In this document: in pieces, positions 4,573 to 48,152 of the stretch
Layout of the letters: each line of letters starts with the position of its first letter
Numbering within the stretch: position 1 is the first letter of the stretch
Source: a virus
Lineage: Duplodnaviria > Caudoviricetes
Length of the DNA: 64,000 nt
Strand: one strand, 5' to 3'
Virus record (IMG/VR): IMGVR_UViG_3300031853_000031
Location: 4,579 to 68,578 of that record
Notes under the pieces: generated by a model
What the model was told of the DNA's origin: nothing
The model's database searches: none
What the model saw: the letters and a program-made list of their open reading frames with translations, nothing else
Translations under genes and position numbers: made by a program

Positions 4573-5300
4573 TGAAAACTTTCAATCTAACATCCAAGCA
4601 GATTCAAGGCATCGCTAACATCGTTGCCCATGAGCAAGGCTCTAAGGCTGGAAGATATGCAGAGGCTTCTCAGATTGCTAATCGGGCTGAGTTATATCAT
4701 GGTGGTGATCCGGTAAAGTGTGTCACTTCAGGCTGGTATGCTCACGGCAAATCAAGGTACGCGGCCGGTACGTCTAACGCTCAGGCTATTGCTATTGTTA
4801 AAGACGTATTCTTAAACGGTCACCGTACCTTGCCTATATATGTTGATGAGCATGACTGCATGAGTGATATCGACAAAGTAGTCAATAAGAAGGGACAGAA
4901 CATCAAGTGGAGCAAGTCCAAGTGGAAACCATTTGAGACACTAATCCACAACAAGATGAGTGCTAACTACTACTTTTATTCCTTCCCGGGCGGATGGAAA
5001 ACAGGAGTAGATCCCTTTGGCTACACCGGAAAGAAGAAGTCACCAAGTAACTCAAGCAGCTTCCATTATATTCTAGGAAGTGCACCAGCAGATGAGTGGG
5101 GTAGAATGATGCCAACATTGAAGCGAGGATCAAAAGGAAAAGCAGTCAAGATCTGGCAAACGATTCTTGGAATAAAAGTAACGGGTTCGTTTGGAGAAGG
5201 AACCGAGAAAGCAACGAAGGAATTCCAGAAGAATCACAAGTTGACCGCAGACGGCGTTGTGGGCGGTTTTACTTGGTCAGCCGGAATTGGCGAATTATAA
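4572..5300 (+). CDS. Endolysin: SleB/Hydrolase_2-like catalytic domain plus C-terminal PG_binding_1 domain
   Basis: C-terminus TLKRGSKGKAVKIWQTILG...G.FG..TEKATKEFQKNHKLTADGVVG is a classic PG-binding domain; N-terminus IANIVAHEQG...AEASQIANRA resembles the SleB catalytic Glu helix. Confidence 0.75.
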   Translation: MKTFNLTSKQIQGIANIVAHEQGSKAGRYAEASQIANRAELYHGGDPVKCVTSGWYAHGKSRYAAGTSNAQAIAIVKDVFLNGHRTLPIYVDEHDCMSDIDKVVNKKGQNIKWSKSKWKPFETLIHNKMSANYYFYSFPGGWKTGVDPFGYTGKKKSPSNSSSFHYILGSAPADEWGRMMPTLKRGSKGKAVKIWQTILGIKVTGSFGEGTEKATKEFQKNHKLTADGVVGGFTWSAGIGEL

Positions 5301-5323: not shown

Positions 5324-5500
5324 TTATTAGTACAAATTGGCTAAAAGAACCGCTTGATACCTAACTATTATCAATTGATGTAGAATTGAACAAGAGATGC
5401 AAGACGGTCGGCAACCACGCATTATAAGCGGTTCTTCAACGCCAATAGAAGTACTAAGCAGTACTAAAAAGCAGACTATTAGTACAGTATTAGTACTGCT
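5324..5500. other. Probable attP region
   Basis: Non-coding gap between convergent lysin and integrase; AGTAC(T/A) arm-type repeats (about 5329, 5450, 5460, 5481, 5492); 11-bp inverted repeat AAGAACCGCTT 5345-5355 / AAGCGGTTCTT 5426-5436. Confidence 0.65.
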
Positions 5501-6680
5501 TTATTTTACTCATTTCTTTAATCAACCAGGAAGTTGGTCGCTCTGTATAGACAGATTCTGTGATGTCGGCTTTTACGGAGTGGCCAACTATCCTCTTGAT
5601 TGCAAAGTCATCAACGCCATATTTCTTTGCAAGGGAGACGAAGTGTTTTCTGGCGTCATGAAGTCTATGGTCAGGACTTATCCCATAAGCCTTGGTAAAA
5701 GTTTCATACTTTGCTCTAAGAGTGTTGTAGGCATAGGGCTTGCCTTCGTTGGTGACCAGTAACTCATGCCCACTCGCAAGAAAAACTTCGATTATATTTT
5801 TTACCAATGGATGGATTGGGATGATGCGATCACGACCGGCTTCAGTCTTCATGCCGCCAACCATATAACCATCTTCTAAAAAGACGTTGCTTGACTTCAT
5901 AGTGATAACTTCTCTTGGTCTAAGACCGGAATAGCACTGCAGCAGGGTTATTCTTGCAAGAGGTTCATGCTGGTTCTCCCAAAGGATTCTCATCTCATCG
6001 TCGGTGTAGGTGATGTGGGGTTTCTGGGTCTTAACTTCGCCCTTTAACTTATATTCTCTTGCATAGTTCCGATCAGTTATCTCAAACTCAATGGCATAGT
6101 CAAAGAGCTGGTTAAAGAGTTTCTTTATATTTCTCTTAGTGTTCTCGGTTGGGGACTGCTTCTTACCTCGTCTTATAACATATCCTTCTTCCATGCAAAA
6201 CTTAATGTGCTTTATCCTTATCTCTCTAAAGGGTGTATCATAGATCAGATGACAGTAATGGTAAGCCGACTCCACATTCACAAGTGTAGCAGAGGTTATA
6301 TTTTTTGAGTGCCTTGCTATCCACTTGTCATAGACTTCCTTAAAGGTAAGGTCAGATGCTAACTCATACGGCGATTTGTTGTACTCCACAAGAGCCATAT
6401 AAGCATCGTTGTAAGTATCAAAGTAAGCCTGAGGTTTAAGGAGCTTACCAATAGGTCTGCCATTTTCATCCTTACCGACAGTAACCATAGCCCGGTAAGG
6501 TTTTCTAACTCTTCCTTTGATTTTTGTAATTCGTCCAAAACCGTTAGGAAGTCGTAATCGTTTTCTGGAAATTTTCCCGGGTGGGATTTTTGGAAATTGC
6601 TTTTGGGGATTACCACAATGGGGACAAGAGTAGGCTTTGTCTGAAACTTGTAATCCGCATTCTTGACATGTAATCAACAT
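5490..6680 (-). CDS. int: Tyrosine integrase with N-terminal zinc ribbon
   Basis: YSGLRPRE (Arg I), KTEAG (Lys), HDARKHF (HxxR) and IVGH...TESVY (His, Tyr nucleophile); RLPNGFG arm-binding domain; CQEC...CPHC ribbon; RBS AAGGAGG. Confidence 0.95.
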   Translation of the reverse strand: MLITCQECGLQVSDKAYSCPHCGNPQKQFPKIPPGKISRKRLRLPNGFGRITKIKGRVRKPYRAMVTVGKDENGRPIGKLLKPQAYFDTYNDAYMALVEYNKSPYELASDLTFKEVYDKWIARHSKNITSATLVNVESAYHYCHLIYDTPFREIRIKHIKFCMEEGYVIRRGKKQSPTENTKRNIKKLFNQLFDYAIEFEITDRNYAREYKLKGEVKTQKPHITYTDDEMRILWENQHEPLARITLLQCYSGLRPREVITMKSSNVFLEDGYMVGGMKTEAGRDRIIPIHPLVKNIIEVFLASGHELLVTNEGKPYAYNTLRAKYETFTKAYGISPDHRLHDARKHFVSLAKKYGVDDFAIKRIVGHSVKADITESVYTERPTSWLIKEMSKIKQY

Positions 6681-34162: not shown

Positions 34163-34691
34163 AGGTTCTCATTCTTTTTTGGGTGCCTCTAAGTATCATT
34201 GGATACGATACGACGAGGATAAGTTCAGGAAAGCATGGAGTAACCATGAAGCAGCCTTACGAGGCACTGCTGATCACGAGTTTGCAGCCTTGTGTATTGC
34301 ACGTGGTCAGAAGTTACCTCGTAGTAAACAAACCCTTAACATGTACGTTAACGACGCAATAGGCTTTGGGCTTAAGCCCGAGGTCACGTTGCGGTATTCT
34401 GATAACGCCTTCGCGACAGCTGATGCTATTGATTTCAAAGAGCGTAAGAAGTTGTTGCAAATCTTTGATTTGAAGACTGGTGTCGTTCCGGCACATATGG
34501 AGCAGCTGCTTGTGTACGCTGCTTATTTTTGTTTGGAATACAAGATGCGTCCTTCTGAATTCAAAACAGAACTTCGTATCTATCAGAACAGTGACGTCGT
34601 AATTTATGAACCCGAAGTAGATGAGATTGTCCCCATAATGGACAAGATCATTCACTTTAACAAGATCATCGAAGAGAGGAAATACCAATGA
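34134..34691 (+). CDS. PD-(D/E)xK (Cas4/RecB-like) exonuclease
   Basis: RGTADH, ATADAI, IFDLKTG and EQLLVYA. Confidence 0.75.
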   Translation: MNFNEHFKLKGSHSFLGASKYHWIRYDEDKFRKAWSNHEAALRGTADHEFAALCIARGQKLPRSKQTLNMYVNDAIGFGLKPEVTLRYSDNAFATADAIDFKERKKLLQIFDLKTGVVPAHMEQLLVYAAYFCLEYKMRPSEFKTELRIYQNSDVVIYEPEVDEIVPIMDKIIHFNKIIEERKYQ

Positions 34692-37615
34692 GTATTATTA
34701 TATTCTCAGATGAGTTGATGCATTATGGTACTCCTCATTCGGGAGCAACCCCACACTCAGGACGCTATCCTTGGGGATCTGGTAAGAATCCACAAAGACA
34801 TAAAAGTATTCTTCAGAGAGCTGGCGAACTTAAAGAAGCTGGATTTACAGCTAGTGAGGTAAGAGCAGTTATGGGTACCACGGATAGCGAAATAGCTGCG
34901 GCTAAAGCTAGAGAGAACAAATGGGGTGATGCTGATGCTCTTCACGAACAGAACAAGGCAACGCTTGCTAAGATTAAGAAGCTTGAAGAAGAAGGTAAGA
35001 CATCGACACAGATTAAAGAAGAAACCGGGTTATCCAGTGGTGATGTTAGAGCTTTAAAGTCTGTCGTAAAGAAGCGTCAGCTTCAACTCGATGTTACAGA
35101 GGCTAGAAGACTTCGAGATGAGGAACACCTTGGGCCCACTGAAATTGCTCGACGTATGAACACTGGTGAGTCTACGATTCGTAACTATCTTAAAGACTCG
35201 TATAAAGAGAAAGTGGATCGTCAAGATGACATCATCAATGTTTTAAAGGCCGAGGTCGATAAAAAGAAATACATTGACGTTGGTAAAGGTGTTGAACTTC
35301 AGCTCAATATTACAAGGGATAAACTTGACAAAACTGTAAAAGAACTTAAACAGCAAGGGTATACTATACACCATTTATCCGTTCCACAAGCTACTAATCC
35401 TGTACACAAAACATCGATCCAGGTATTAACCAAAGATGATGTACCGTGGAAAGAAGTTAATGCTAATCGTGAAAAAGTAGCAACCATATTGGATGTGTAT
35501 TCGGATGGTGGTGAGATTAAGAAGAAAGCCCCACCCGTCAGTATTGACTCATCACGTATCATGATTCGATACAACGAAGATGGTGGTGTAGATAAGGACG
35601 GTGTGTTGGAGCTTAGGCCAAGCGCTAAAGACTTATCGATGGGTGGAAACCGGTATTCTCAAGTCCGAGTCGCAGTTGATGACACCCACTATCTTAAAGG
35701 CATGGCGATGTATGCTGATGAGAAGGACTTCCCACCAGGTATCGATATTATATTTAACACTAATAAGCATAGGGGCACACCTATGATCGGAGAAGATGCT
35801 GATCATGAAGTTCTTAAGCGATTGAAGACTGATAAAGTCACCGGTGATGTTGATGTCGATAATCCTTTCGGTGCTATTGTAAAACAAAAGACGTATGTTG
35901 GAGACGATGGAAAGGAACATCAGTCCCCCATCAACATCGTTAACGAAGATGAAGACTGGGAGAAGTGGTCAAAGAATCTTTCTGCACAGTTCTTATCTAA
36001 ACAATATTTAGCTACTGCTAAGAAACAATTAGACCTCACATATAGAGATAAAGTGAAAGAGTTTGAAGAGATTCAGGCTCTTACCAATCCCGTTCTCAAA
36101 GAAAAACTGATGCGGTCTTTTGCTGATGATTGCGATTCAGCAGCAGTTCATCTCAAGGCTAAGGCGTTTGATCGGCAAGCGAGTCATGTTATTCTTCCTA
36201 TGCCTTGGAATAAACCTAATGAGATCTATGCACCGAATTATGAACAGGGTGAGGAATTGGCTCTTGTACGATATCCACACGGTGGAACGTTCGAGATTGC
36301 TATCGTTACTGTTAACAATAACAATCCTAAAGCTAGAAGATTAATAGGTAACGCCGCACACGCTGTGGGTATTAATCCAGAAGTAGCACAACAGTTATCT
36401 GGTGCAGACTTTGATGGTGATACTGTAGTTTGTATTCCTACTAGAGGTAATAAGATTAAGGCAACGAAAGCTATTAAGGAGTTAATAGACTTCGAGCCTA
36501 AAGAAAAGTATCCTGCTTACGAAGGTATGCCTCGTGTCGGTCCTGATACTGGATTCCATAAACAGGCTGAGATGGGTCGAGTTACAAATCTTATCACGGA
36601 TATGACCATTAAGCACGCCACTACTGAAGAAATTATTAAAGCTACTAAACATTCCATGGTAGTAATAGACGCTGAAAAGCATAATCTCGATTGGAGGCGT
36701 AGCTATGAAGAGAATCAGATAGAGGCGTTGAAGCGTAAATATCAGAACACCGCTTCTAACGGACGTCCGGGTGGATCATCGACTATCATCTCTCGTGCAA
36801 AGTCCCCCTACATGGCTCCTGAAATAGACACCAACCGGCCCTATAAGATCAATCCTGAAACCGGGGAGAAGGAGTTCCAGTTTACAAACAAGACCCATAA
36901 CAAAAGAAATAAAGACGGGACCTATAGCGACAAAGAGATACCCAACACCTATAAATCCACCAAGATGTACTGGGCTAAGGACGCCTATGAACTAACGTCT
37001 GATGGGAAGGGTGGTACTAAGATGGAACAAGCCTATGCTGACTATGCTAATAGTCTTAAAGCATTAGGTGATAGGGCCAGACTGGAGTCGGTCCATATAG
37101 AGAGTATCCCCTATTCAAAAGAAGCCCGTCGTGTTTACAAAGCTGAAGTAGAATCGTTACAGGCTAAACTTAATGCTGCTATAGCCCACTCTCCTAAAGA
37201 ACGTAAGGCTCAACTTGTAGCGTCTAAAGTGATTGCTGCTAAAAAAGAGGCCAATCCAGACATGACTAAAGAAGAGGAGAAGAAGATGCGGTCTATAGCT
37301 ATAGCAGACGCACGTTCTCATCTTATAGGTACACAGAGTAAGCCTCGTATTACAGAGATTACAGATCGTGAATGGGAAGCAATTCAGTCTGGTGCTGTTA
37401 CTAAGTCCATGCTTAGAGAGATTATTGATAACTCTGATCAAGACATGATTAGACAAAGAGCAACACCAAGAACTAATAGTAAGACATTAACACCTGCACA
37501 GAGGGCTAGTATACACGCCATACTTACTAACCCCAACAACAAAGTAACACAAGCTGAATTAGCTAAACGTTACAATGTTTCAGTATCTACGATCAATAAG
37601 ATTGCTCGTGAATAA
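34688..37615 (+). CDS. Single-chain two-barrel RNA polymerase (YonO / RdRP-like) with HTHs and N-terminal HxG tag
   Basis: SGADFDGD at 36398-36421; LVRYP upstream; QVRV...YLKGM second-barrel motif; HTHs GPTEIARRMNTGESTIRNYL and TQAELAKRYNVSVSTINKI; starts SDELMHYG. Confidence 0.85.
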   Translation: MSIIIFSDELMHYGTPHSGATPHSGRYPWGSGKNPQRHKSILQRAGELKEAGFTASEVRAVMGTTDSEIAAAKARENKWGDADALHEQNKATLAKIKKLEEEGKTSTQIKEETGLSSGDVRALKSVVKKRQLQLDVTEARRLRDEEHLGPTEIARRMNTGESTIRNYLKDSYKEKVDRQDDIINVLKAEVDKKKYIDVGKGVELQLNITRDKLDKTVKELKQQGYTIHHLSVPQATNPVHKTSIQVLTKDDVPWKEVNANREKVATILDVYSDGGEIKKKAPPVSIDSSRIMIRYNEDGGVDKDGVLELRPSAKDLSMGGNRYSQVRVAVDDTHYLKGMAMYADEKDFPPGIDIIFNTNKHRGTPMIGEDADHEVLKRLKTDKVTGDVDVDNPFGAIVKQKTYVGDDGKEHQSPINIVNEDEDWEKWSKNLSAQFLSKQYLATAKKQLDLTYRDKVKEFEEIQALTNPVLKEKLMRSFADDCDSAAVHLKAKAFDRQASHVILPMPWNKPNEIYAPNYEQGEELALVRYPHGGTFEIAIVTVNNNNPKARRLIGNAAHAVGINPEVAQQLSGADFDGDTVVCIPTRGNKIKATKAIKELIDFEPKEKYPAYEGMPRVGPDTGFHKQAEMGRVTNLITDMTIKHATTEEIIKATKHSMVVIDAEKHNLDWRRSYEENQIEALKRKYQNTASNGRPGGSSTIISRAKSPYMAPEIDTNRPYKINPETGEKEFQFTNKTHNKRNKDGTYSDKEIPNTYKSTKMYWAKDAYELTSDGKGGTKMEQAYADYANSLKALGDRARLESVHIESIPYSKEARRVYKAEVESLQAKLNAAIAHSPKERKAQLVASKVIAAKKEANPDMTKEEEKKMRSIAIADARSHLIGTQSKPRITEITDREWEAIQSGAVTKSMLREIIDNSDQDMIRQRATPRTNSKTLTPAQRASIHAILTNPNNKVTQAELAKRYNVSVSTINKIARE

Positions 37616-38164: not shown

Positions 38165-38500
38165 GTGACATGTGTGGGTAAACGTGCTGAGCGTCCTGCT
38201 ATGTCGCCGGAAGCAAAAGAGCAACAAATGATTGGACTCGCTATTGACTGCTGTGAGCAGCGTATGCGTGATGGAACAGCTTCTTCTGCAGAGATTTGCC
38301 ACTATCTCAAGCTTGGAACAACTAAAGCCAGACTTGAATTGGAAATCTTAGAGCACGAGAAACAGTTAGTCATCGCAAAGACCGAGTCCATTCGTAAAGC
38401 AGAAGAATCTTCCGCACTATACGCCGAGGTAATTAAGGCTATGAAGATCTACAAAGGCGAAGAGGACGAAGAGGAGGACTATGATGAGGACATATACTGA
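38165..38500 (+). CDS. Probable terminase small subunit
   Basis: First gene after the putative cos; helical; RBS AAGGAGG (start possibly GTG 38174). Confidence 0.55.
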   Translation: MTCVGKRAERPAMSPEAKEQQMIGLAIDCCEQRMRDGTASSAEICHYLKLGTTKARLELEILEHEKQLVIAKTESIRKAEESSALYAEVIKAMKIYKGEEDEEEDYDEDIY

Positions 38501-38900
38501 ACTTATCACCCTTCCGACCTTTGAAGAACGCTTTAACTACCTGAAACTTGACAACAAGGTCGCCGAACAGACCTTTGGAGCAGAAAGATATTTGAACCAG
38601 AAGTTCTATCGGTCTCCCGAATGGCGAAGACTCCGCGACCAGATAATAGTAAGAGATCTGGGCTGTGATATGGGTTTGCCCGGTTACGAAATCCATGGAA
38701 AGATCATCATCCACCATATGAATCCTATAACGATGGAAGACATCTACCATGCTTCGAACGCTCTGATGAATCCTGAGTTCTTAGTTTGTGTAAAACACGC
38801 TACCCACAACGCCATCCACTATGGTGACGATACGATTCTCAGAACAAACGTCGTAACAGAACGCAAACCCAACGATACCTGCCCTTGGAGGAAGTCATGA
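38481..38900 (+). CDS. HNH endonuclease (cos-packaging associated)
   Basis: RDLGCDMG...IHHMNP...LVCVKHATHNAIH. Confidence 0.85.
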   Translation: MMRTYTELITLPTFEERFNYLKLDNKVAEQTFGAERYLNQKFYRSPEWRRLRDQIIVRDLGCDMGLPGYEIHGKIIIHHMNPITMEDIYHASNALMNPEFLVCVKHATHNAIHYGDDTILRTNVVTERKPNDTCPWRKS

Positions 38901-39724
38901 GAACACAATACCAAGACTTTCTAGTCCATCATGGACGTCTAGGACAAAAATGGGGTGTGAAAAACGGTCCTCCCTATCCGCTCCAACTAAAGGGTAAGTC
39001 CTACGGTTCAGTAATGAAGAAAAAGCTTACCCGGAAACAGACAAAAGAGTTAAAGAAAGAGTTTTCACGACAATCTGAGAAGGATAAAGAAGAAACTAAG
39101 AATGAAAAACGAGAGCTTCATTCGGCTGGTATACACAAAGGCATCTTTAATGACTACCTCGAAAAAGACAAATCCCTTTATCGCTATAGTAGTACGGATA
39201 AGGAGTCTTTGGACAATCGGCGTAAATACGTCAGTGTTACAGAAACGGACAGAAGAGTCTATAAGAACGACGCTGAAGCGAATGCCCTGTCTAACAAGGG
39301 AAAAGACGTATATTTGTACGAATACACTTCCAAGGAACGAATTAAGATTGCCAGAGCTGAGAAGTTTATCAAGGATGCGATCCGAGAATATGGCGACGAC
39401 GATGTAAAAGAAGCTTGGAAACAGACGAAAATAGCTAATGTCCGCAAACATTATCACAAGCTTAATAGCGAGTTAAAAGATCCGTCAAACAATAAAAGAT
39501 GGATGTTTGATCATGCTGCGGATAATCAGGAAAAGGTATCTAAGTTTCTTCATGATGTCTTATACGACCCCGAAAAGTCTAAGAAGTTCTACGATAAGTA
39601 TTACAAGAAAGGTTATCGTGCGATTGTCGATCCTGAAGACTATTCTTCTGGATATTACTATCCACTGATAGTTCTAAATCCAAAAGAAAGCATGGTAACC
39701 AAGAAAGTTAAAAGGGTGAGATAA
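38897..39724 (+). CDS. HHG-tagged protein A with ADP-ribosyltransferase-like domain
   Basis: FLVHHGRLGQKWGVKNGPPYPL; LYRYS, KYVSVT and KGYRAIVDPED...PLIVLNP resemble ART strands. Confidence 0.6.
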   Translation: MRTQYQDFLVHHGRLGQKWGVKNGPPYPLQLKGKSYGSVMKKKLTRKQTKELKKEFSRQSEKDKEETKNEKRELHSAGIHKGIFNDYLEKDKSLYRYSSTDKESLDNRRKYVSVTETDRRVYKNDAEANALSNKGKDVYLYEYTSKERIKIARAEKFIKDAIREYGDDDVKEAWKQTKIANVRKHYHKLNSELKDPSNNKRWMFDHAADNQEKVSKFLHDVLYDPEKSKKFYDKYYKKGYRAIVDPEDYSSGYYYPLIVLNPKESMVTKKVKRVR

Positions 39725-39725
39725 G

Positions 39726-40088
39726 ATGAACGACTCAATTCTAACTTCTATAAAGAAACTCCTAGGAATCCCAGCTGATTACACTCACTTCGACGAAGAC
39801 ATCCTAACCCAGATCAACATGGCTTTCTCTACGCTTAAGCAATTAGGCGTTGGACCAGAGGATGGCTTTACTGTCGAAGACAAAAACGACTTCTGGGACG
39901 ACTATATGGACGAAGGTCCAACTCTCAACATGGTGAAAACCTATATTCAGCTCAAAGTTCGTCAGACATTCGACCCGCCAACCATTTCAGCAGTCTTAAC
40001 CTCTCTTGAGAGCCAGATAGCTGAGCTTGAGTGGAGGCTCTTAGTCGAATGTGATCCTGATTCCACGAATGAGGGCGAAGAGGAATAG
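39726..40088 (+). CDS. Head-tail connector (gp6/gp15-like)
   Basis: SILTSIKKLLG...FDEDIL..IN...LKVR..FDPP...ELEWRL. Confidence 0.7.
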   Translation: MNDSILTSIKKLLGIPADYTHFDEDILTQINMAFSTLKQLGVGPEDGFTVEDKNDFWDDYMDEGPTLNMVKTYIQLKVRQTFDPPTISAVLTSLESQIAELEWRLLVECDPDSTNEGEEE

Positions 40089-40092
40089 CAAA

Positions 40093-41064
40093 ATGAAAGC
40101 GTTTACTAAATACCAAGACTTCTTAGTCCATCATGGACGTCCTGGACAGCGATGGGGTGTGAAGAATGGTCCTCCCTATCCTCTCGGTGCTTCTAACCAG
40201 AAGTATAAGAAGATGATGAAAGATCGGAAAGGGACAGTTCACGAGCCGTTTTCCGAAGCTGACATTTCCAAGGCTGAATGGAATAAGTTCAAGAAAATGC
40301 TTGCTGAAGAAGAGTCTCGTGAAAACATTAGCCTAATGGAGGCGGATGCCAGGGCAAAATTAGAGAAGAAAAATACGAAAAAGGCGTTGACTGCGTCGGC
40401 AGTACTAACTCCTATTTTTCCTCTTTTGTTGATAACCGACATATCAAACGCAAAGCTGCTTGCCGACAATCGTTCCGCTGAAAAACTTGAAAAAGCCCTT
40501 CTTAAGCAAATCGAATCTAACACCCGTGTTGACCCGAAAACTGGTTTTAGGCTAAAACAAAAAGAGATGACCATACCACAGGATGTTGCTATGATCAACC
40601 CCGGTTTTAAGACCTTTAACGATTCGTATAAGCATAACTGTACTTTCTGTACTACTGCTTATGATATGCGTCGTAGAGGTTATGACGTTATGGCCAACAA
40701 GACTCCGAATGATCAGATGACAGGACAATTCTTCCAGTGGTATCCTAAATCTAAGATGGTATCCATTACTAGATCGTCCAATTCTAACGGTGATTATCTG
40801 AAAGAAATCCAAGATGAAATCACCAAACAGGGTAATGGTGCCAGAGGTAACTTTTCTGTTCAGTGGAAGGGTGGAGCTGGCGGACATTCGATGGCTTATG
40901 AGGTTGTTGGAGATAAGTTCGTGGTTATCGACGCTCAGTCTAATAAGATCTACAAGGATAAGGACCTATCGAGGATCATCGAACACACCGACTATGCGAC
41001 CTATATCAGATTAGATAACGTAGACATCAATCCAAAAATGATAAAGAAGGCGGTGAGACCATGA
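40093..41064 (+). CDS. HHG-tagged protein B with papain-fold toxin (Tox-PL / Gln deamidase-like) domain
   Basis: FLVHHGRPGQRWGVKNGPPYPL; HNCTFCTTAYDMRRRGYDV (Cys), GGHSMAY (His), VIDAQS (Asp); ATG at 40093. Confidence 0.8.
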   Translation: MKAFTKYQDFLVHHGRPGQRWGVKNGPPYPLGASNQKYKKMMKDRKGTVHEPFSEADISKAEWNKFKKMLAEEESRENISLMEADARAKLEKKNTKKALTASAVLTPIFPLLLITDISNAKLLADNRSAEKLEKALLKQIESNTRVDPKTGFRLKQKEMTIPQDVAMINPGFKTFNDSYKHNCTFCTTAYDMRRRGYDVMANKTPNDQMTGQFFQWYPKSKMVSITRSSNSNGDYLKEIQDEITKQGNGARGNFSVQWKGGAGGHSMAYEVVGDKFVVIDAQSNKIYKDKDLSRIIEHTDYATYIRLDNVDINPKMIKKAVRP

Positions 41065-41315
41065 CACCAAAAGAAGCAGTAGCATCTGTGAAAAAAGTTC
41101 ATCCGAACCATGTGCCGACACAGGTGCTCGATTACGATAATGATTATTACATTGTCGAGGCTTTACCGAAAGGCGTTGACAAGAGTTCTGACGACCCTTA
41201 CTATGCTGTAGAAAAGAAAACCGGTAAAGTCTACTTCTATCATCCAGGTGGCGATTTCATCAAATTCTTTGATGCATTAGATAATAGAGCCATCAAAATA
41301 GGAGATGTAAAATGA
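41061..41315 (+). CDS. Putative immunity protein (Imm35/YrhB-like)
   Basis: 84 aa; ATGA overlap with the toxin gene; MTPKEAVASV...PYYAVEKKTGKV pattern. Confidence 0.55.
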   Translation: MTPKEAVASVKKVHPNHVPTQVLDYDNDYYIVEALPKGVDKSSDDPYYAVEKKTGKVYFYHPGGDFIKFFDALDNRAIKIGDVK

Positions 41316-43012
41316 GAACACAATACCAAGACTTTCTAGTCCATCATGGACGTCTAGGACAAAAATGGGGTGTGAAAAACGGTCCTCCCTATCCGCTCCA
41401 GCTTAAAGGCAGATCTTACGGCTCTATCATGAAGAAAAAGAAGAAGCTTCCTGAGGCGGAGGTTGCTACAAAGAAGGAAGGATCGTCAGATAGGGCGAGT
41501 CAGAATCAGAGTCGGGCAGCTTCAGATGTTTATAAAAAATGGGATAACGACACATTACTGTCTACTCGCAAAGAAGTAAAAGATGTCCATGACGAATTAA
41601 ACAAGATCCCAAAGAAACATCGTACAGAAGCTCAGCAACGTCAGTATGAAGATACCAAACAGAAACTTAGTTTGTTAGATAAAGAACTCAATAGGCGTTC
41701 TTCCAAAGACTTCGATGCAAGTGCTTCTAATAATCCGTCTCTTAGAGCCAATCTCGACACGATCGAGCAGATGATTCGACAGCATATGATCAATGAAACT
41801 AATCGTTCAATAGACCTTAACAATCAGACGGTTAATAATGTTGTTACACAGCAAATGATGTTTGGTAAAGGCCAAAAACAAGGCTCCATCGCAGACAGGG
41901 CAAAATCTTTTCTTAAGAACTACAACTCCCCAGAAGCCAAAGCTGCTCGTGAAGCCCGTCGTCATGAGGAAAATCTTAAGATGATGGAGAATATGAGAGC
42001 TCATGATGAGCGTGCTGCTCAGAAACAGAAAACGAAAGACTTAAAGGCTGAGCGTGAAGAACATCAGAGAAGACTTAAGGAGATCGAAGCCGAGCTTAAG
42101 AAGGACAAAGAAGAACGTAGTCACGAGAAAGCCATGAAGATGCTTGAGAAGTATCAGAAGAAAAATGGTAGTGATGTCGAGGATACCTCGGGCTCTGAAG
42201 AGCGTGGCTCTATCACCGATAGAGAGGGTAGTTCAAGGGATTGGTCTAAAACTGAAAAAGCTATCGAAAAACAATCTAGCAAAAGTCTTAGGAATAGTTT
42301 TCAGGAGGCCCAATTCTGGAAAGAAGATCTTAGAGATAGACTCACAGAAACCAAGGACCCCAAAGAGAGAGCCGAGATTCAGAAGAGTATTAACGAAATA
42401 GACAAACGGCGTCAGTTAATACAAAAAGAGTTAGACAGTCGTAGGAAGAACGGCGATGCTGATACGCTCACTCAAACGCAAGGCTCTCTTAGGGAAAAAG
42501 CTAAGCAGGCTATCGAGAAGTACAATTCTCCAGAAGAGAAAACCAAGCGTGCAGCGGCTAGAGCCGAACGTGAGAGAGTTAGAGCAGAGAAAGCTGTGGA
42601 GAAAGCGATAAAAAGGTCTGAACGTAGTGAGGCCAGAGCTGAGCGTAAGCGTGAACGGGCGGAAGCTAAAGCCGAAGCCGCCAGGGAAGCTGCAGCGGCT
42701 GAAAGAAAGAAGTTTCTTGATAATGCCACTCCTGAACAGATTCTTAAACGTCATGATGAGTTCACTACAAAAGAAGTAGACGATGCCATTGTGCGTATCA
42801 GGCAGCGGCAGACATTGCAGTCTCTTAGCGAAACTGAGAAATCTCAGACCGAACGCTTTATTAAGAATACTTTTAATAAAGTCAACACTGTTGAAAAGTT
42901 TGTATCGACTTCTATCAAGCTTTACGATGACTATGAGGACTTCATGAATATTCTCAACAAGAGACCTCGTCGTAAAGATCAGAAGAAAAATGACGATAAA
43001 AAGAAAGAATAA
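41312..43012 (+). CDS. HHG-tagged protein C, highly charged coiled coil
   Basis: Same tag; E/K/R/A-rich; no catalytic motif recognised. Confidence 0.8.
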   Translation: MRTQYQDFLVHHGRLGQKWGVKNGPPYPLQLKGRSYGSIMKKKKKLPEAEVATKKEGSSDRASQNQSRAASDVYKKWDNDTLLSTRKEVKDVHDELNKIPKKHRTEAQQRQYEDTKQKLSLLDKELNRRSSKDFDASASNNPSLRANLDTIEQMIRQHMINETNRSIDLNNQTVNNVVTQQMMFGKGQKQGSIADRAKSFLKNYNSPEAKAAREARRHEENLKMMENMRAHDERAAQKQKTKDLKAEREEHQRRLKEIEAELKKDKEERSHEKAMKMLEKYQKKNGSDVEDTSGSEERGSITDREGSSRDWSKTEKAIEKQSSKSLRNSFQEAQFWKEDLRDRLTETKDPKERAEIQKSINEIDKRRQLIQKELDSRRKNGDADTLTQTQGSLREKAKQAIEKYNSPEEKTKRAAARAERERVRAEKAVEKAIKRSERSEARAERKRERAEAKAEAAREAAAAERKKFLDNATPEQILKRHDEFTTKEVDDAIVRIRQRQTLQSLSETEKSQTERFIKNTFNKVNTVEKFVSTSIKLYDDYEDFMNILNKRPRRKDQKKNDDKKKE

Positions 43013-43025
43013 GGAGTGACTCTAT

Positions 43026-44759
43026 ATGGCATTATCTAACACTGCCACTCCTTACTACTATGGTCAATTTCGTGATGCGGTAATGAGAGGTGAGATACCT
43101 GTCTGTGAGACTATTGTTATGCAGATGAATCTCATCGACAAGTTAATAGAAGATGCTAGATACTACTATGACGATCGGGCTGTCGAAGGTTGGATTAAGT
43201 TCTGTGAAGCCGAGCTTACTCTGACTGATGGTTCCGATCTTTTCTTATTACCGACATTCAAACTCTGGGCTGAGGACGTCTATGGTTGGTACCACTTTAT
43301 AGAAGAAGACGTCTGGAACAGAGCACAACGACGCTTTATCAAGAAACAGGTAAAGCATCGTCTAAGAAACAAGCAATACTTGATAGTTGCCAGAGGAGCG
43401 GCTAAGACTGTATATGGTGAATGTCATCAGGCTTATGGTCTGACGGTAGACACTACTACAACTCATCAGATTACCACGGCTCCAACCATGAAACAAGCAG
43501 AAGAAATACTATCTCCTTTCAGAACTGCTATAACCAGGGCTCGTGGGCCGCTCTTCCGGTTTCTTACAGAAGGATCTCTCCAGAACACCACTGGCAACAA
43601 AGCACTTAGACAAAAACTTGCATCCACAAAGAAGGGCGTTGAGAACTTCTTAACGAATTCTCTCCTTGAAGTACGACCTATGTCTATCAACAAGCTTCAG
43701 GGGTTACAGAACAAGTATTCCACTGTCGATGAGTGGTTGTCTGGTGACATCAGAGAGGACGTTATAGGTGCCCTAGAGCAGGGCGCATCTAAGGTGGATG
43801 ACTGGCTCATCATTGCTATGAGTTCAGAGGGAACAGTCCGTAATGGAGCTGGCGATACCATCAAAATGGAGCTTATGGACATCCTTAAAGGTAAGTATGA
43901 AGCTCCTAACGTGTCTATCTGGTGGTACAAACTCGACAACCTTGAAGAAGTAAACATGCCTGAGATGTGGTTGAAAGCCAATCCTAATCTTGGTGCGACC
44001 GTATCTTACGAGACTTACGAGATTGAGAAGCAGAGAGCTGAGAACGCACCTGCCGCTCGTAATGACATCCTTGCTAAAAGATTCGGTATCCCTATGGAGG
44101 GGTATACTTACTTCTTTACTTACGAGGAAACCTTCTGTCACGAGAAGAGGGACTACTGGCAGATGGAATGTGCTATGGGTGCTGACCTTTCTCAGGGTGA
44201 TGACTTCTGTGCATTCACTTTCCTATTCCCTCTTGGCGATGGTTCCTTCGGCATTAAGACCAGGTCCTACATCACTTCTTTAACTCTTCACAAACTTCCA
44301 GCTGCTATGAGAATTAAGTACGACGAGTTCATGAAAGAAGGTTCTCTCATTGTTCTTGAGGGTACGGTTCTTAACATGATGGAAGTCTATGAAGACTTGG
44401 ATGAGTTTATTACAGCTAACGAGTATGATGTCAACTGCTTCGGTTACGACCCGTACAACGCAAAAGCTTTTGTGGAGAGATGGGAACTGGAGCATGGACC
44501 TTTTGGTACTGTGAAAGTCATTCAAGGTGCCAGAACAGAATCAGTCCCCCTTGGCGAACTTAAGAAACTCGCCGAAGAGAGACTACTCTTGTTTGATGAG
44601 GAACTTATGTCCTTTACGATGGGGAACTGTATCACCCTTGAAGATACTAATGGTAACCGGAAACTGCTTAAAAAGCGCTATGAGCATAAGATTGATAATG
44701 TCGCAGCTCTAATGGATGCTTTCATAGCTTATAAGGAAAATCTGGATATGTTTGATTAG
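43026..44759 (+). CDS. Terminase large subunit
   Basis: VARGAAKT (Walker A), TVDEW (Walker B), GADLSQGDDF (RNase H-like nuclease), KIDNVAALMDA. Confidence 0.95.
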   Translation: MALSNTATPYYYGQFRDAVMRGEIPVCETIVMQMNLIDKLIEDARYYYDDRAVEGWIKFCEAELTLTDGSDLFLLPTFKLWAEDVYGWYHFIEEDVWNRAQRRFIKKQVKHRLRNKQYLIVARGAAKTVYGECHQAYGLTVDTTTTHQITTAPTMKQAEEILSPFRTAITRARGPLFRFLTEGSLQNTTGNKALRQKLASTKKGVENFLTNSLLEVRPMSINKLQGLQNKYSTVDEWLSGDIREDVIGALEQGASKVDDWLIIAMSSEGTVRNGAGDTIKMELMDILKGKYEAPNVSIWWYKLDNLEEVNMPEMWLKANPNLGATVSYETYEIEKQRAENAPAARNDILAKRFGIPMEGYTYFFTYEETFCHEKRDYWQMECAMGADLSQGDDFCAFTFLFPLGDGSFGIKTRSYITSLTLHKLPAAMRIKYDEFMKEGSLIVLEGTVLNMMEVYEDLDEFITANEYDVNCFGYDPYNAKAFVERWELEHGPFGTVKVIQGARTESVPLGELKKLAEERLLLFDEELMSFTMGNCITLEDTNGNRKLLKKRYEHKIDNVAALMDAFIAYKENLDMFD

Positions 44760-44932
44760 TCTTCTCTTTCAATCCAATTACCAATGACACGCTTACCATC
44801 TAGGTAGGTCCATTCGCCATCCTCTTCGTCCTCGTTGTAAAAGGTGGCTTCGGCTTCTTCATAGGTGTCATAAACTTGGGTGCTACGATATTCAGACTCA
44901 TCTTCTGTTACAGAATAAACCCTATATCCCAT
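44756..44932 (-). CDS. 58-aa acidic antisense moron protein (not in ORF track)
   Basis: MGYRVYSVTEDESEYRSTQVYDTYEEAEATFYNEDEEDGEWTYLDGKRVIGNWIERED; RBS GGAGG; upstream TTGCTT-16 bp-TATACT with TG extension on the minus strand. Confidence 0.75.
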   Translation of the reverse strand: MGYRVYSVTEDESEYRSTQVYDTYEEAEATFYNEDEEDGEWTYLDGKRVIGNWIERED

Positions 44933-45004
44933 AGTACTTCTACCTCCGTTTAAGTGCTATTTATTGCTACTAATAACAGTATACCAGAAAGTGAGGATTA
45001 AGCA

Positions 45005-46282
45005 ATGCCTAGTTTTGGATCCAGGCTACAACATGCTTGGAATGCTTTCTTCAACAAAGACCCCACACCGCAAGCCCGGGTTGAGTATGGCTACTCGTCA
45101 TATCACAGACCCGACAGATATCAGATGTCACCAAGTAACAAGCGGTCTATCGTGTCAGCGATTTACAATCGTATAGCCGTAGACGCTTCCATGGTGGCAA
45201 TCGAACATGTAGATACAGATCCGGATCAAAATCATCGCTTTGTAGGAGTACGTAAGTCTGCTCTTAACGACTTGCTTACTGTCAGAGCAAATATCGACCA
45301 GACTGGCAAGGACTTTATTAGAGACATTATTATCTCTATGTTTGACGAAGGCTGTATTGCTTTGGTTATCACTCAGGCTACAGATGACCCACGACTTACT
45401 AACATCTACGACATTGGTTCTGCCAGAGTTGCAAAGATTGTCCAGTGGTATCCGGAACATGTAAAAGTACAAGTATACAACGAAAGAACCGGCCATCGAG
45501 AAGAACGTATCTATCCCAAGGAATGTACCGCCATTATCGAGAACCCGTTCTTTCTAATCATGAACGAGCCTAACTCAGTTCTCCAGCAGCTTATCAGGAA
45601 GATGAACTTGCTGGATTATGTGGAGTCAAGGGCTAATTATGGGAAGTTGGATTTGATTATTCAGCTTCCTTATTTAGTTAAGACGCCTAAGAAACAGGCT
45701 CAGGCTGAACGACGTCGTAAAGACATCGAACAACAGTTATCCAGTTCCGATTACGGAATTGCATATACAGATGGTACGGAGAGAATCACTCAGCTTAACC
45801 GTCCTGTCGAAAACAAGATTTGGGAAGAAGTGAAAGACTTAACGAGCATGTTATACAACCAGTTAGGAATGCACCAATCCATCTTTGACGGCACGGCGAA
45901 CGAGCAGACGATGATTAACTACTATAACCGAACCATCGACCCCGTGTTAGCCGCTATTGCTGATGCTATCAACATGAAGTGGCTGACCAAAACTGCACGT
46001 ACGCAAGGGCAGACCATCCGGTATTACAGGAGTCCCTTTAGGCTTACACCTGCTAAGGAGATTGCTAACATCGGAGGAGCTCTCATACAAAGCGAGGTCG
46101 TATCGTCCAACGAAGTGCGTGCTGAGCTTGGTTACGTACCGTCTGATGATCCTAGAGCTGATCAGCTTCTTAACAAGAACATCAACACGGTTGACCAATC
46201 TACGCAGGCGGCAGAGAATCCTCCGTCTGTGGAGGACTCTGTAAAAGTAAAAGGAGGAACAGATCAAAATGGCGAAACCTGA
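45005..46282 (+). CDS. Portal protein (HK97-like)
   Basis: After TerL; SIVSAIYNRIAVD, IFDGTANE, NEVRAELG motifs. Confidence 0.9.
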   Translation: MPSFGSRLQHAWNAFFNKDPTPQARVEYGYSSYHRPDRYQMSPSNKRSIVSAIYNRIAVDASMVAIEHVDTDPDQNHRFVGVRKSALNDLLTVRANIDQTGKDFIRDIIISMFDEGCIALVITQATDDPRLTNIYDIGSARVAKIVQWYPEHVKVQVYNERTGHREERIYPKECTAIIENPFFLIMNEPNSVLQQLIRKMNLLDYVESRANYGKLDLIIQLPYLVKTPKKQAQAERRRKDIEQQLSSSDYGIAYTDGTERITQLNRPVENKIWEEVKDLTSMLYNQLGMHQSIFDGTANEQTMINYYNRTIDPVLAAIADAINMKWLTKTARTQGQTIRYYRSPFRLTPAKEIANIGGALIQSEVVSSNEVRAELGYVPSDDPRADQLLNKNINTVDQSTQAAENPPSVEDSVKVKGGTDQNGET

Positions 46283-48152
46283 ATTACAGTGTGATTTCTC
46301 CGGCTGGGTTACGAAAAACGACGTTAAATGTGCAGACGGACGAGTCATCAAACATGGAGCCTTCGCTGACAATGAGGGTGAAACTGTCCCGTTAATGTGG
46401 GGACACAATCACTCCGACCCTTCTAATGTTCTGGGAAAGATGCTTCTTAGAAACTTAGATGAGGGGACATACGGCTATGGCTTCCTTAATCATAGTGCCA
46501 AAGCTGATGAGGCAAGAGAGCTTCTTAAGCATGGCGATATTACCAGAATGTCTATATGGGCAGGGGAACTTGTTCATCAGGACTGTAACGTTGTTCATGG
46601 CCGAATTAAAGAAGTAAGCCTTGTCGTTGGTGCCGCTAATCCCGGAGCCAGGATTGAAAATGTCTATCTGGCTCACAGCGATGGTGAAGGTGAAGTATTA
46701 GACGATGAAGCTGTAATCTTCTTTGATGATGGCATTGATTTCTTCCACTCTGACGAACCTGAAGAAGGTAAAAAAGAGGAAAAGAAGGAAGAGAAGGAAG
46801 AAGGGAAAGAAGAAGGCGAAATGGATCCGGAAAAGATCTATAAAACTTTAAACGACGATCAGAAGAGATTGTTCACTTTTGTAGTAAATGAAGCCCTCGA
46901 ATCCGGCAAAGCCGACGAGGAAGAAAAAGAAGTTAAACATTCGGAAGGAGAAACTGAAATGAAATACAATACTTTTGATACTGGTGCAGAGCAGGCTAGA
47001 GGTAACTTCATCTCTCACGCTGACCAGGAAATGATTATGGAAATGGCTAAGGACCGTGGTGTAGGTTCTTTCCAGAACGCATTTAAGATTTATGCCGAGC
47101 AGAACGAACTGATGCATTCCGACGCAGCTGACGCTGTAGGTGGTTTTACTACATCACCAACAGAGAACCATTTCGGACTTGAAGCTGTATTCCCGGAATA
47201 CAAGGAAGTATCCGGCAGCAAGACCCCGGAGTTAATCACTTCTGATCAGGGCTGGATCACAACAGTCATGAACAAGGTTCATAAGAGCCCCATCTCCAGA
47301 ATCAGAACCAGCCATCTCGACATTCGTGGACTGGACGAGCTTCGTGCAAAGGGTTATCAGAAGGGCCGGAAGAAATCCCTGTCTGGCAACTTCGAGTTTG
47401 CTCGTAGAACAACCGATCCTCAGACTATCTATGTTCGTAACTCCCTGCACAGGGATGATATCATCGATATCACAGACTTTGACTATGTAAACTACCTCTT
47501 TAACATCGACAAGATGATGCTGAACGAAGAGCTGGCTACAGCTATCATGATTGGTGATGGCCGTGCTCAATCGTCCGATGACAAGATCTTCGAGACACAT
47601 ATCAGATCTATCTGGCATGATGACGACCTGTACACCATACATGTAGATCTTGATACTACAGATCCCGAGATTCAGGGCAGCGAGACTGAAGGATACTTCG
47701 GTGAGAACTACATCATGGCTGAATCCATGATCCAGACCGTTCTCTATGCACGTGAGAACTTCAAAGGCACAGGTACTCCTGATATGTTCATTACTCCTCA
47801 TATGCTCAACGTAATGCTTCTGTCCAGAGACCGCAACGGCCGTAGAATCTTCTCCAGCAAGAACGAACTGGCTGCAGCTCTTAACGTTGGTGCTATCCAT
47901 ACAGCCGAACAGTTTGCTGACAAGACTCGTACCGCTACTATCAACGGAACCGAGAAGACCAAGAAGCTCATCGCTATCATCTGCAACCTGGCTGACTACT
48001 CTCTGGGTCATACAAAGGGTGGCGAAGTAACACACTTTACACAGTTTGATATCGACTTCAACCAGCAGAAGAGCCTGCTTGAGACCAGATGCTCCGGTGC
48101 TCTTACAAAGCTGTGGTCTGCTATCGCTATCGAGGAGGATGTAACTGCCTAA
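46269..48152 (+). CDS. Fused prohead protease (HK97-type S78) / scaffold / major capsid protein
   Basis: VPLMWGH (His), RMSIW (Ser), EVSLV...ANPGARI; acidic linker; capsid-like C-terminus FDIDFNQQK.L.ETRCSGAL. Confidence 0.9.
   Translation: MAKPELQCDFSGWVTKNDVKCADGRVIKHGAFADNEGETVPLMWGHNHSDPSNVLGKMLLRNLDEGTYGYGFLNHSAKADEARELLKHGDITRMSIWAGELVHQDCNVVHGRIKEVSLVVGAANPGARIENVYLAHSDGEGEVLDDEAVIFFDDGIDFFHSDEPEEGKKEEKKEEKEEGKEEGEMDPEKIYKTLNDDQKRLFTFVVNEALESGKADEEEKEVKHSEGETEMKYNTFDTGAEQARGNFISHADQEMIMEMAKDRGVGSFQNAFKIYAEQNELMHSDAADAVGGFTTSPTENHFGLEAVFPEYKEVSGSKTPELITSDQGWITTVMNKVHKSPISRIRTSHLDIRGLDELRAKGYQKGRKKSLSGNFEFARRTTDPQTIYVRNSLHRDDIIDITDFDYVNYLFNIDKMMLNEELATAIMIGDGRAQSSDDKIFETHIRSIWHDDDLYTIHVDLDTTDPEIQGSETEGYFGENYIMAESMIQTVLYARENFKGTGTPDMFITPHMLNVMLLSRDRNGRRIFSSKNELAAALNVGAIHTAEQFADKTRTATINGTEKTKKLIAIICNLADYSLGHTKGGEVTHFTQFDIDFNQQKSLLETRCSGALTKLWSAIAIEEDVTA

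Follow-up and report, generated by a model that had tools for sequence, protein, structure and literature searches.

A conserved Tox-PL1 enzyme and partner pair in the head module of a temperate siphophage, with a short N-terminal tag as putative head-loading signal

What does a papain-fold enzyme, followed at once by a small gene of its own, do among the head genes of a gut phage? The question is raised by two genes on the + strand of a 64,000-nucleotide stretch of viral DNA (hereafter the window), positions 4,579 to 68,578 of the IMG/VR virus record IMGVR_UViG_3300031853_000031 (Duplodnaviria; Caudoviricetes). The window represents most of this 68.6-kb record, which has direct terminal repeats and is rated 100% complete. 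The first gene (40093-41064) encodes a 323-aa protein with a short N-terminal tag and a C-terminal Tox-PL1 domain, and the second (41061-41315) encodes an untagged 84-aa protein, here called the partner. The analysis identified the two as a conserved enzyme and partner pair, and we place at slightly better than even the complete reading, that the tagged Tox-PL1 enzyme is held off by a cognate inhibitor, loaded into the head via its tag and injected.

The identity of the enzyme was evaluated first at the level of family and residues. Pfam Gln_amidase (PF15644, "Papain fold toxin 1") matched residues 182-284 above its cut-off (27.5 vs. 24.1 bits, E 7.3e-6), the match spanning nearly the whole model. 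The motifs HNCTFCTTAYDMRRRGYDV, GGHSMAY and IDAQS, from which the original prediction had read a Tox-PL papain-fold domain, are all present in the translation of 40093-41064. The Tox-PL1 family signature is NC-H-DxQ (Zhang et al., 2012, PMC3482391), and corresponds here to N182-C183, H265 and D280-x-Q282, with the codons of Asn182 at 40636-40638, Cys183 at 40639-40641 (TGT), His265 at 40885-40887 (CAT), Asp280 at 40930-40932 (GAC) and Gln282 at 40936-40938 (CAG). N182, C183, H265 and Q282 were invariant in both the 31-homologue and the 111-homologue (A4) alignments, and D280 was kept in at least 90% of the 111 homologues. A database of 5.8 billion proteins yielded at least 204 homologues, most of them close to 300 aa long and with the same tag-plus-domain layout; a single-protein pattern scan of IMG/VR returned no enzyme relatives, so that an alignment-based search was needed.

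The AlphaFold2 (AF2) model of the enzyme had a predicted local distance difference test score (pLDDT) above 90 across the catalytic domain, which the model, the structure matches and the conservation place at residues 118-323 (40444-41061, + strand); residues 100-114 were of low model confidence. A transmembrane helix had been considered for the hydrophobic stretch at residues 108-133 and was ruled out, as the segment from 118 is the confident first helix of the catalytic domain. The best 50 VIA-align rows were all papain-fold cysteine enzymes (50 of 50) and were led by the injected effectors SpvD (top match, Z 11.3, rmsd 4.1, 163 aligned) and OspI (Z 9.1), together with C39 leader peptidases (Z 8.7-9.2) and AvrPphB (Z 8.1). 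Foldseek agreed weakly with a papain fold, and a profile search of PDB sequences gave no match for the enzyme. Taken together, these results make the product of 40093-41064 an intact member of the Tox-PL1 (Pfam Gln_amidase) family of papain-fold cysteine enzymes, as originally predicted. The accompanying claim of a complete Cys-His-Asp triad held in part: the residues are present, whereas the signature of the family is NC-H-DxQ, and the triad is a deduction from the modelled papain fold. The fold alone does not separate a protease from a deamidase, and a literature search found no characterised member of PF15644.

Among the structural neighbours was also the pseudomurein endoisopeptidase PeiR (Z 8.2). 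Papain-fold wall hydrolases exist, and a homologue of the enzyme, Sporto gp8 of an Arthrobacter phage, is annotated 'amidase', which would suit a virion-associated cell-wall amidase or endopeptidase that aids DNA entry through a Gram-positive wall. We consider this role highly improbable, since Pfam assigns Gln_amidase and no CHAP or NlpC/P60 family at E 0.1, no CHAP or NlpC/P60 structure stands among the listed Foldseek and VIA-align rows, and the 1920-aa tape measure protein of the phage already carries a wall-binding CW_7 repeat. Moreover, the leaderless partner is related to polymorphic-toxin immunity proteins (see below), a kinship that favours an intracellular target.

The small open reading frame (ORF) behind the enzyme is a conserved, co-diverging partner of the Tox-PL1 domain. 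In 64 of the 71 IMG/VR loci with a complete Tox-PL1 gene, a small ORF (45-125 aa) started -40 to +100 nt from the Tox-PL1 stop. By iterated hidden Markov model (HMM) search, 38 of these 64 ORFs belonged to the same family as the window partner, and many of the remaining ones had the same helix plus "V-x-K-x-T-G-E" pattern as judged by eye. When all loci were counted, 40 of the 46 partner-family matches were directly downstream of Tox-PL1 and three lay inside the Tox-PL1 reading frame, ahead of the tag (L015, L018 and L019); the others included one (L013) that closely precedes the Tox-PL1 gene, and one tandem second copy. The same pair occurs in the Arthrobacter phages Lewando (gp10/gp11) and Sporto (gp8/gp9), in Gordonia phage Mossy (gp17/gp18) and in Acutalibacter phage Fontainebleau. 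Enzyme and partner distances were correlated (Mantel r 0.64, a value reached by none of 2000 permutations), which shows co-inheritance of the two proteins, not binding.

Relatives of the partner came only from a full HMMER scan, which gave 100 among 1.8 billion representatives, nearly all of about 80 aa, and from neighbourhood mining. A word-based search with the 84-aa protein returned that protein alone, and tblastn against 50,697 phage records gave no match at E 0.01. As a separate observation, cluster-F mycobacteriophage proteins annotated 'VIP2-like toxin', represented by Mycobacterium phage Fameo (gp3-gp4, L089:1545-2674), gave a match to Pfam Gln_amidase (E 3.8e-13) and to none of the ADP-ribosyltransferase families at E 0.001; the downstream Fameo gp4 (105 aa) has a partner-like 'V-D-K-A-T-G-E' motif and scored below the HMM threshold.

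To which family does the partner belong? An Imm35-like immunity gene had been predicted at this position, and a family-to-family comparison was made against an Imm35 alignment of relatives of E. coli YrhB (yrhB being taken from an annotated record), which carry PF15567. With hhalign, the diverse partner alignment (A2) matched it full-length over 77 columns at 95.5% (E 1.6e-8, score 45.5), while 80 column shuffles and a reversal scored at most 16.1; when the window sequence and its three closest relatives were left out, the value was 95.9%. The closer-knit partner alignment (A3) gave 34% and a score of 26.4. In the ESM Atlas the best named clusters for the partner were all Imm35, at 0.76, a value that serves as a lead only. 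A profile search of PDB sequences gave chance matches only for the partner and none for Imm35, and Imm35 was not found in the 401 searched genomes of the phylum of a rabbit-gut metagenome-assembled genome (MAG) that holds the phage's relative (see below). Zhang et al. (2012, PMC3482391) specifically associate Imm35 with Tox-PL1, regard it as probably inhibiting a peptidase and list W and S/T as its conserved residues; the 84-aa protein has the Thr of the K-x-T-G turn. In E. coli K-12, the Imm35 type member yrhB (L087:9760-10044) is located just downstream of yhhZ, annotated as a putative endonuclease, and of an IS1-interrupted yrhA.

The AF2 model of the partner (pLDDT 92.9) consists of a helix on a four-stranded sheet, then a helix. 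Its best structural matches were the PepSY proteins 4exr (Z 6.4), YpmB (Z 6.3) and YpeB (Z 5.6), with cystatins behind them at Z of about 4-5, all of these values lying in the range of common arrangements. Pfam PepSY (PF03413) reached 11.8 bits vs. a cut-off of 24 on the window partner (E 0.02, model positions 2-56 of 60), and the phage has no PepSY signal apart from this one, whose position coincides exactly with the partner ORF. In the partner family, PepSY matched 5 of 33 (best 1.5e-7) and 18 of 88 members, and hhalign of the family against a small alignment of four PepSY domains stayed at noise level. A shared 'Y-x-V-D-K-x-T-G-E' hairpin motif explains why the partner also matched a 2827-aa protein and PQQ beta-propellers, and these matches were discarded. 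The partner is thus a remote Imm35/YrhB relative with a PepSY-like shape and not an outright member of the Imm35 family. It is likely to inhibit the enzyme by direct binding, and we hold this part of the reading with good confidence.

How, then, would the enzyme reach a host? The tag core YQDFLVHHGRPGQRWGVKNGPPYPL, residues 7-31 (40111-40185, + strand), was located by a six-frame regular-expression scan and is DUF7211-like. It is common to three window proteins (38897-39724, 40093-41064 and 41312-43012); the two other than the enzyme have unrelated C-terminal parts, and no small partner gene accompanies either of them. The tag residues H13, G15, G18, W21 and G22 were invariant in the 31-homologue and kept in at least 90% of the 111-homologue alignment, many full-length enzyme homologues carry a precomputed PF23847 match, and AF2 models the tag segment as disordered (pLDDT below 50). 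Related loci encode two to nine tagged proteins each, and in every case the tagged genes and the enzyme gene share one strand. At E up to 0.1, the Pfam families on the enzyme were Gln_amidase and a weak DUF7211 only, and no MuF domain (PF04233) was found; the same Pfam search recognised MuF in relatives.

The carriers used in those relatives provide the main argument for loading. Tox-PL1 genes that lack the tag are mostly Phage_Mu_F fusions, while in Fontainebleau the domain is carried by minor capsid protein 2 (Phage_min_cap2), and these MuF- and minor-capsid-fused genes also have the partner directly downstream. The cassette of Tox-PL1 plus partner therefore moves between a known virion carrier and the DUF7211 tag, which points to the tag as a head-loading module. 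Consistent with a head setting, 49 of 81 loci had homologues of the window phage's terminase, portal, capsid or connector no more than 6 kb away from the enzyme gene. Further, a 100% complete 86.7-kb phage (the record behind L070) carries five tagged ORFs without any Tox-PL1 catalytic domain, and the same combination of tagged genes and no Tox-PL1 is seen in four partial records, indicating that the enzyme is an optional cargo of the tag system. The window also encodes a 975-aa single-chain RNA polymerase-like protein (34688-37615; phrog_4291, DFDGD motif, helix-turn-helix domains at both ends), whose beginning is tag-like (ELMHYG...GRYPWGSGKNP) and gives no match to Pfam DUF7211; this protein might be packaged as well, should the tag prove to load cargo.

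By analogy with the phages in which MuF or minor-capsid proteins carry the same cassette, packaging and injection of the enzyme through its tag seem, on balance, a probable route of virion delivery. The enzyme and the 84-aa inhibitor would be produced together, late in infection, and the untagged inhibitor would silence the enzyme inside the producing cell. The tag, in place of the MuF or minor-capsid carrier of other phages, would have the enzyme taken into the head. The enzyme would then arrive in the next host alongside the DNA and free of the inhibitor, where it could alter a cytoplasmic host protein via cleavage or deamidation. A broader version, to which we give somewhat less than even weight, takes DUF7211 as a general cargo-loading peptide of many Gram-positive siphophages, through which changeable effectors, including Tox-PL1 and perhaps RNA polymerase, would be injected, with the Imm35-like partner as a detachable safety catch that stays behind, or is severed at the tag, when the particle assembles. 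If true, general DUF7211 loading would be a MuF-independent, programmable protein-delivery route in phages.

Several observations weigh against injection of a tagged enzyme whose inhibitor stays behind. Pfam Imm35 (PF15567) gave no match in six frames of the whole phage even at E 10, while the control found Imm35 in E. coli, and there were no matches among the 33 and 88 partner-family members. The 84-aa protein also has no Trp, although that residue is listed for Imm35, a Tyr aligning with the Trp of YrhB. The predicted Imm35-like immunity gene thus stands as a conserved, co-diverging partner with shuffle-controlled remote similarity, and falls short on these two points. The tag of the window's own proteins scores under the Pfam cut-off for DUF7211 (PF23847; 12.7-15.8 bits vs. 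27 on the three proteins), and a literature search returned no paper on DUF7211. In addition, the partner domain is fused ahead of the tag in 8 of the 100 representatives (P0126, P0127, P0130, P0131, P0136, P0145, P0149 and P0147), which continue with an unrelated C-terminal part or with Tox-PL1, P0147 being a partner-tag-enzyme protein. A partner fused in this way may in some cases be carried into the head, or be removed there by cleavage, and the picture of a stay-behind inhibitor becomes less clear-cut. Finally, polyproteins with several tags exist that end in Tox-PL1, the form to be expected of a processing peptidase: Mossy gp17 (L090:1472-3016) is organised as tag-GNAT acetyltransferase-tag-Tox-PL1, and a 1028-aa IMG/VR ORF (L008:1571-4657) has four tag motifs in one frame and a Tox-PL1 end. 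It follows from these polyproteins that the tag need not be N-terminal, and DUF7211 tags may mark cleavage or docking sites.

The last two observations lead to an alternative in which Tox-PL1 is the phage's own processing peptidase, acting on tagged proteins or multi-tag polyproteins in the cell or the prohead, with a partner that behaves like a pro-domain until assembly. Zhang et al. (2012, PMC3482391) proposed such a role for Tox-PL1 domains that are internal or linked to MuF. The two polyprotein layouts would suit it, the partner-tag-enzyme fusions look zymogen-like, and the C39 enzymes among the best structural neighbours (Z 8.7-9.2) are double-glycine leader peptidases. However, the complete phage with five tagged genes and no Tox-PL1 indicates that the tag system works without the enzyme, and MuF-carried Tox-PL1 occurs in loci without any tags. 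Moreover, the window phage has a prohead protease of its own, as a fusion with the capsid protein, and each of its tagged proteins is a separate gene, so that nothing would have to be released. We therefore regard a processing peptidase as unlikely, and injection of a head-loaded enzyme is kept as the preferred reading.

The gene order around the pair also bears on this reading. As originally predicted, the pair lies inside the head module, with a head-tail connector upstream and the terminase, portal and protease-capsid fusion downstream. In order, an HNH endonuclease gene (38481-38900) precedes the tagged genes and is followed by the 275-aa tagged protein with a different C-terminal part (38897-39724, + strand; phrog_7502, function unknown). 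The connector gene (39726-40088, + strand; Pfam Phage_connect_2, E 7e-36; phrog_4247) is directly upstream of the enzyme gene, and a 566-aa tagged protein that is rich in charged residues and has no informative family match (41312-43012, + strand) follows the partner. Directly downstream of the tagged genes, 43026-48152 (+ strand) encodes the large terminase (TerL_nuclease, 7.9e-31), the portal (Phage_portal, 4.7e-19) and a 627-aa ORF with a weak N-terminal Peptidase_S78 match, read as the protease-capsid fusion in line with the annotation (capsid-protease fusion) of its Lewando homologue. Between terminase and portal, a minus-strand acidic ORF of 58 aa (44756-44932) has no Pfam match.

A GAGGAA ribosome-binding site lies about 12 nt 5' of the enzyme ATG. 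The partner ATG at 41061 overlaps the enzyme TGA as ATGA, the overlap that had been reported for the 84-aa ORF, and the partner stop in turn shares an ATGA with the start of the tagged gene that follows at 41312. Promoter-like sites numbered 9 vs. 7.8 ± 2.6 in shuffles, and none of them precedes the partner gene. A separate promoter for the partner gene was ruled out, the signal being not above chance. The ATGA overlaps and the lack of a promoter excess fit co-expression in a late operon, that is, self-protection of the producing cell, and do not fit an immunity expressed in the lysogen. To this extent, the original idea of self-protection during late expression is consistent with the gene arrangement.

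Except for a tyrosine integrase (5490-6680, minus strand), the predicted genes read on the + strand of the window, whose G+C content is about 42%. The integrase together with the tape measure protein and its CW_7 repeat identify the phage as a temperate siphophage, probably of a Gram-positive host. Its sole relative in the genome collection is one locus in a rabbit-gut Clostridia MAG. This lifestyle bears on another alternative, that the pair is not packaged at all and acts as a cytoplasmic late enzyme with its regulator, or as a toxin-antitoxin-like module that benefits the lysogen, the shared N-terminus serving some purpose other than head loading. The phage is temperate like the phages of MuF toxins (Jamet et al., 2017, PMC5576092), no partner is known for the disordered tag, and packaging is itself a matter of inference. 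Conversely, the enzyme gene lies between connector and terminase and is translationally coupled to genes of the structural module, the identical cassette is fused elsewhere to the virion proteins MuF or minor capsid protein 2, and no promoter-like signal above chance would serve expression in the lysogen. An unpackaged pair is accordingly judged quite unlikely.

The head-loading reading was then compared with known systems. The closest are the MuF polymorphic toxins of temperate phages, including MuF-Tox-PL1 fusions (PMC3482391; PMC5576092), which, like the window enzyme, share a variable C-terminal toxin domain with bacterial polymorphic toxins. They resemble the window locus in the small downstream partner gene, in the position among head genes by terminase and portal and in the temperate lifestyle, and in related loci the same Tox-PL1 and partner cassette stands behind MuF. 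Unlike them, the window enzyme has no MuF domain and carries a 25-residue DUF7211 tag instead. This tag is present on two further window proteins and on up to nine per locus elsewhere, and in this respect it is more like a cargo-loading peptide than the MuF carrier is.

The bacterial Tox-PL1/Imm35 pairs (Zhang et al., 2012) have the same enzyme family, by Pfam and by NC-H-DxQ, and a partner directly downstream; the window partner is a full-length remote homologue of Imm35/YrhB, which Pfam Imm35 misses and which lacks the listed Trp. In contrast to these pairs, the window enzyme has no secretion-system domain (WXG, RHS, SpvB), its putative vehicle being the phage head, and in some phages the partner forms one polypeptide with either the enzyme or the tagged protein that follows.

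In T4, the capsid targeting sequence brings anti-defence internal proteins into the head, from which they are injected (Rao and Black, 2010, PMC3012670). Both it and the tag are short conserved N-termini on otherwise unrelated, fast-changing proteins encoded with head genes; however, they have no sequence similarity, loading and cleavage at the tag are proposed by analogy, and T4 uses a separate scaffold core while the window phage has a protease-capsid fusion. For the partner, PepSY domains and cystatins share the helix on a four-stranded sheet. PepSY domains are propeptide inhibitors of M4 peptidases, and an inhibitor role would match; PepSY proteins are mostly found outside the cytoplasm, whereas the window partner has no leader. 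A literature search found no paper connecting PepSY to Tox-PL1 in phages.

In conclusion, the locus varies the known theme of MuF-type phage polymorphic toxin-immunity cassettes and does not amount to a system of a new kind. Through it, Tox-PL1 gains a defined and conserved predicted inhibitor partner, and the Imm35 family is extended into phages, where current Pfam models miss its members. Phage toxin domains are known from MuF fusions, while their action on host entry is still largely untested, and the presence of the pair in cultured Arthrobacter, Gordonia and Acutalibacter phages makes these ideas open to bench testing. One enzyme-plus-inhibitor cassette that moves between two carriers marks the 25-residue tag as a likely head-loading signal, which may become a handle for placing chosen proteins into phage particles.

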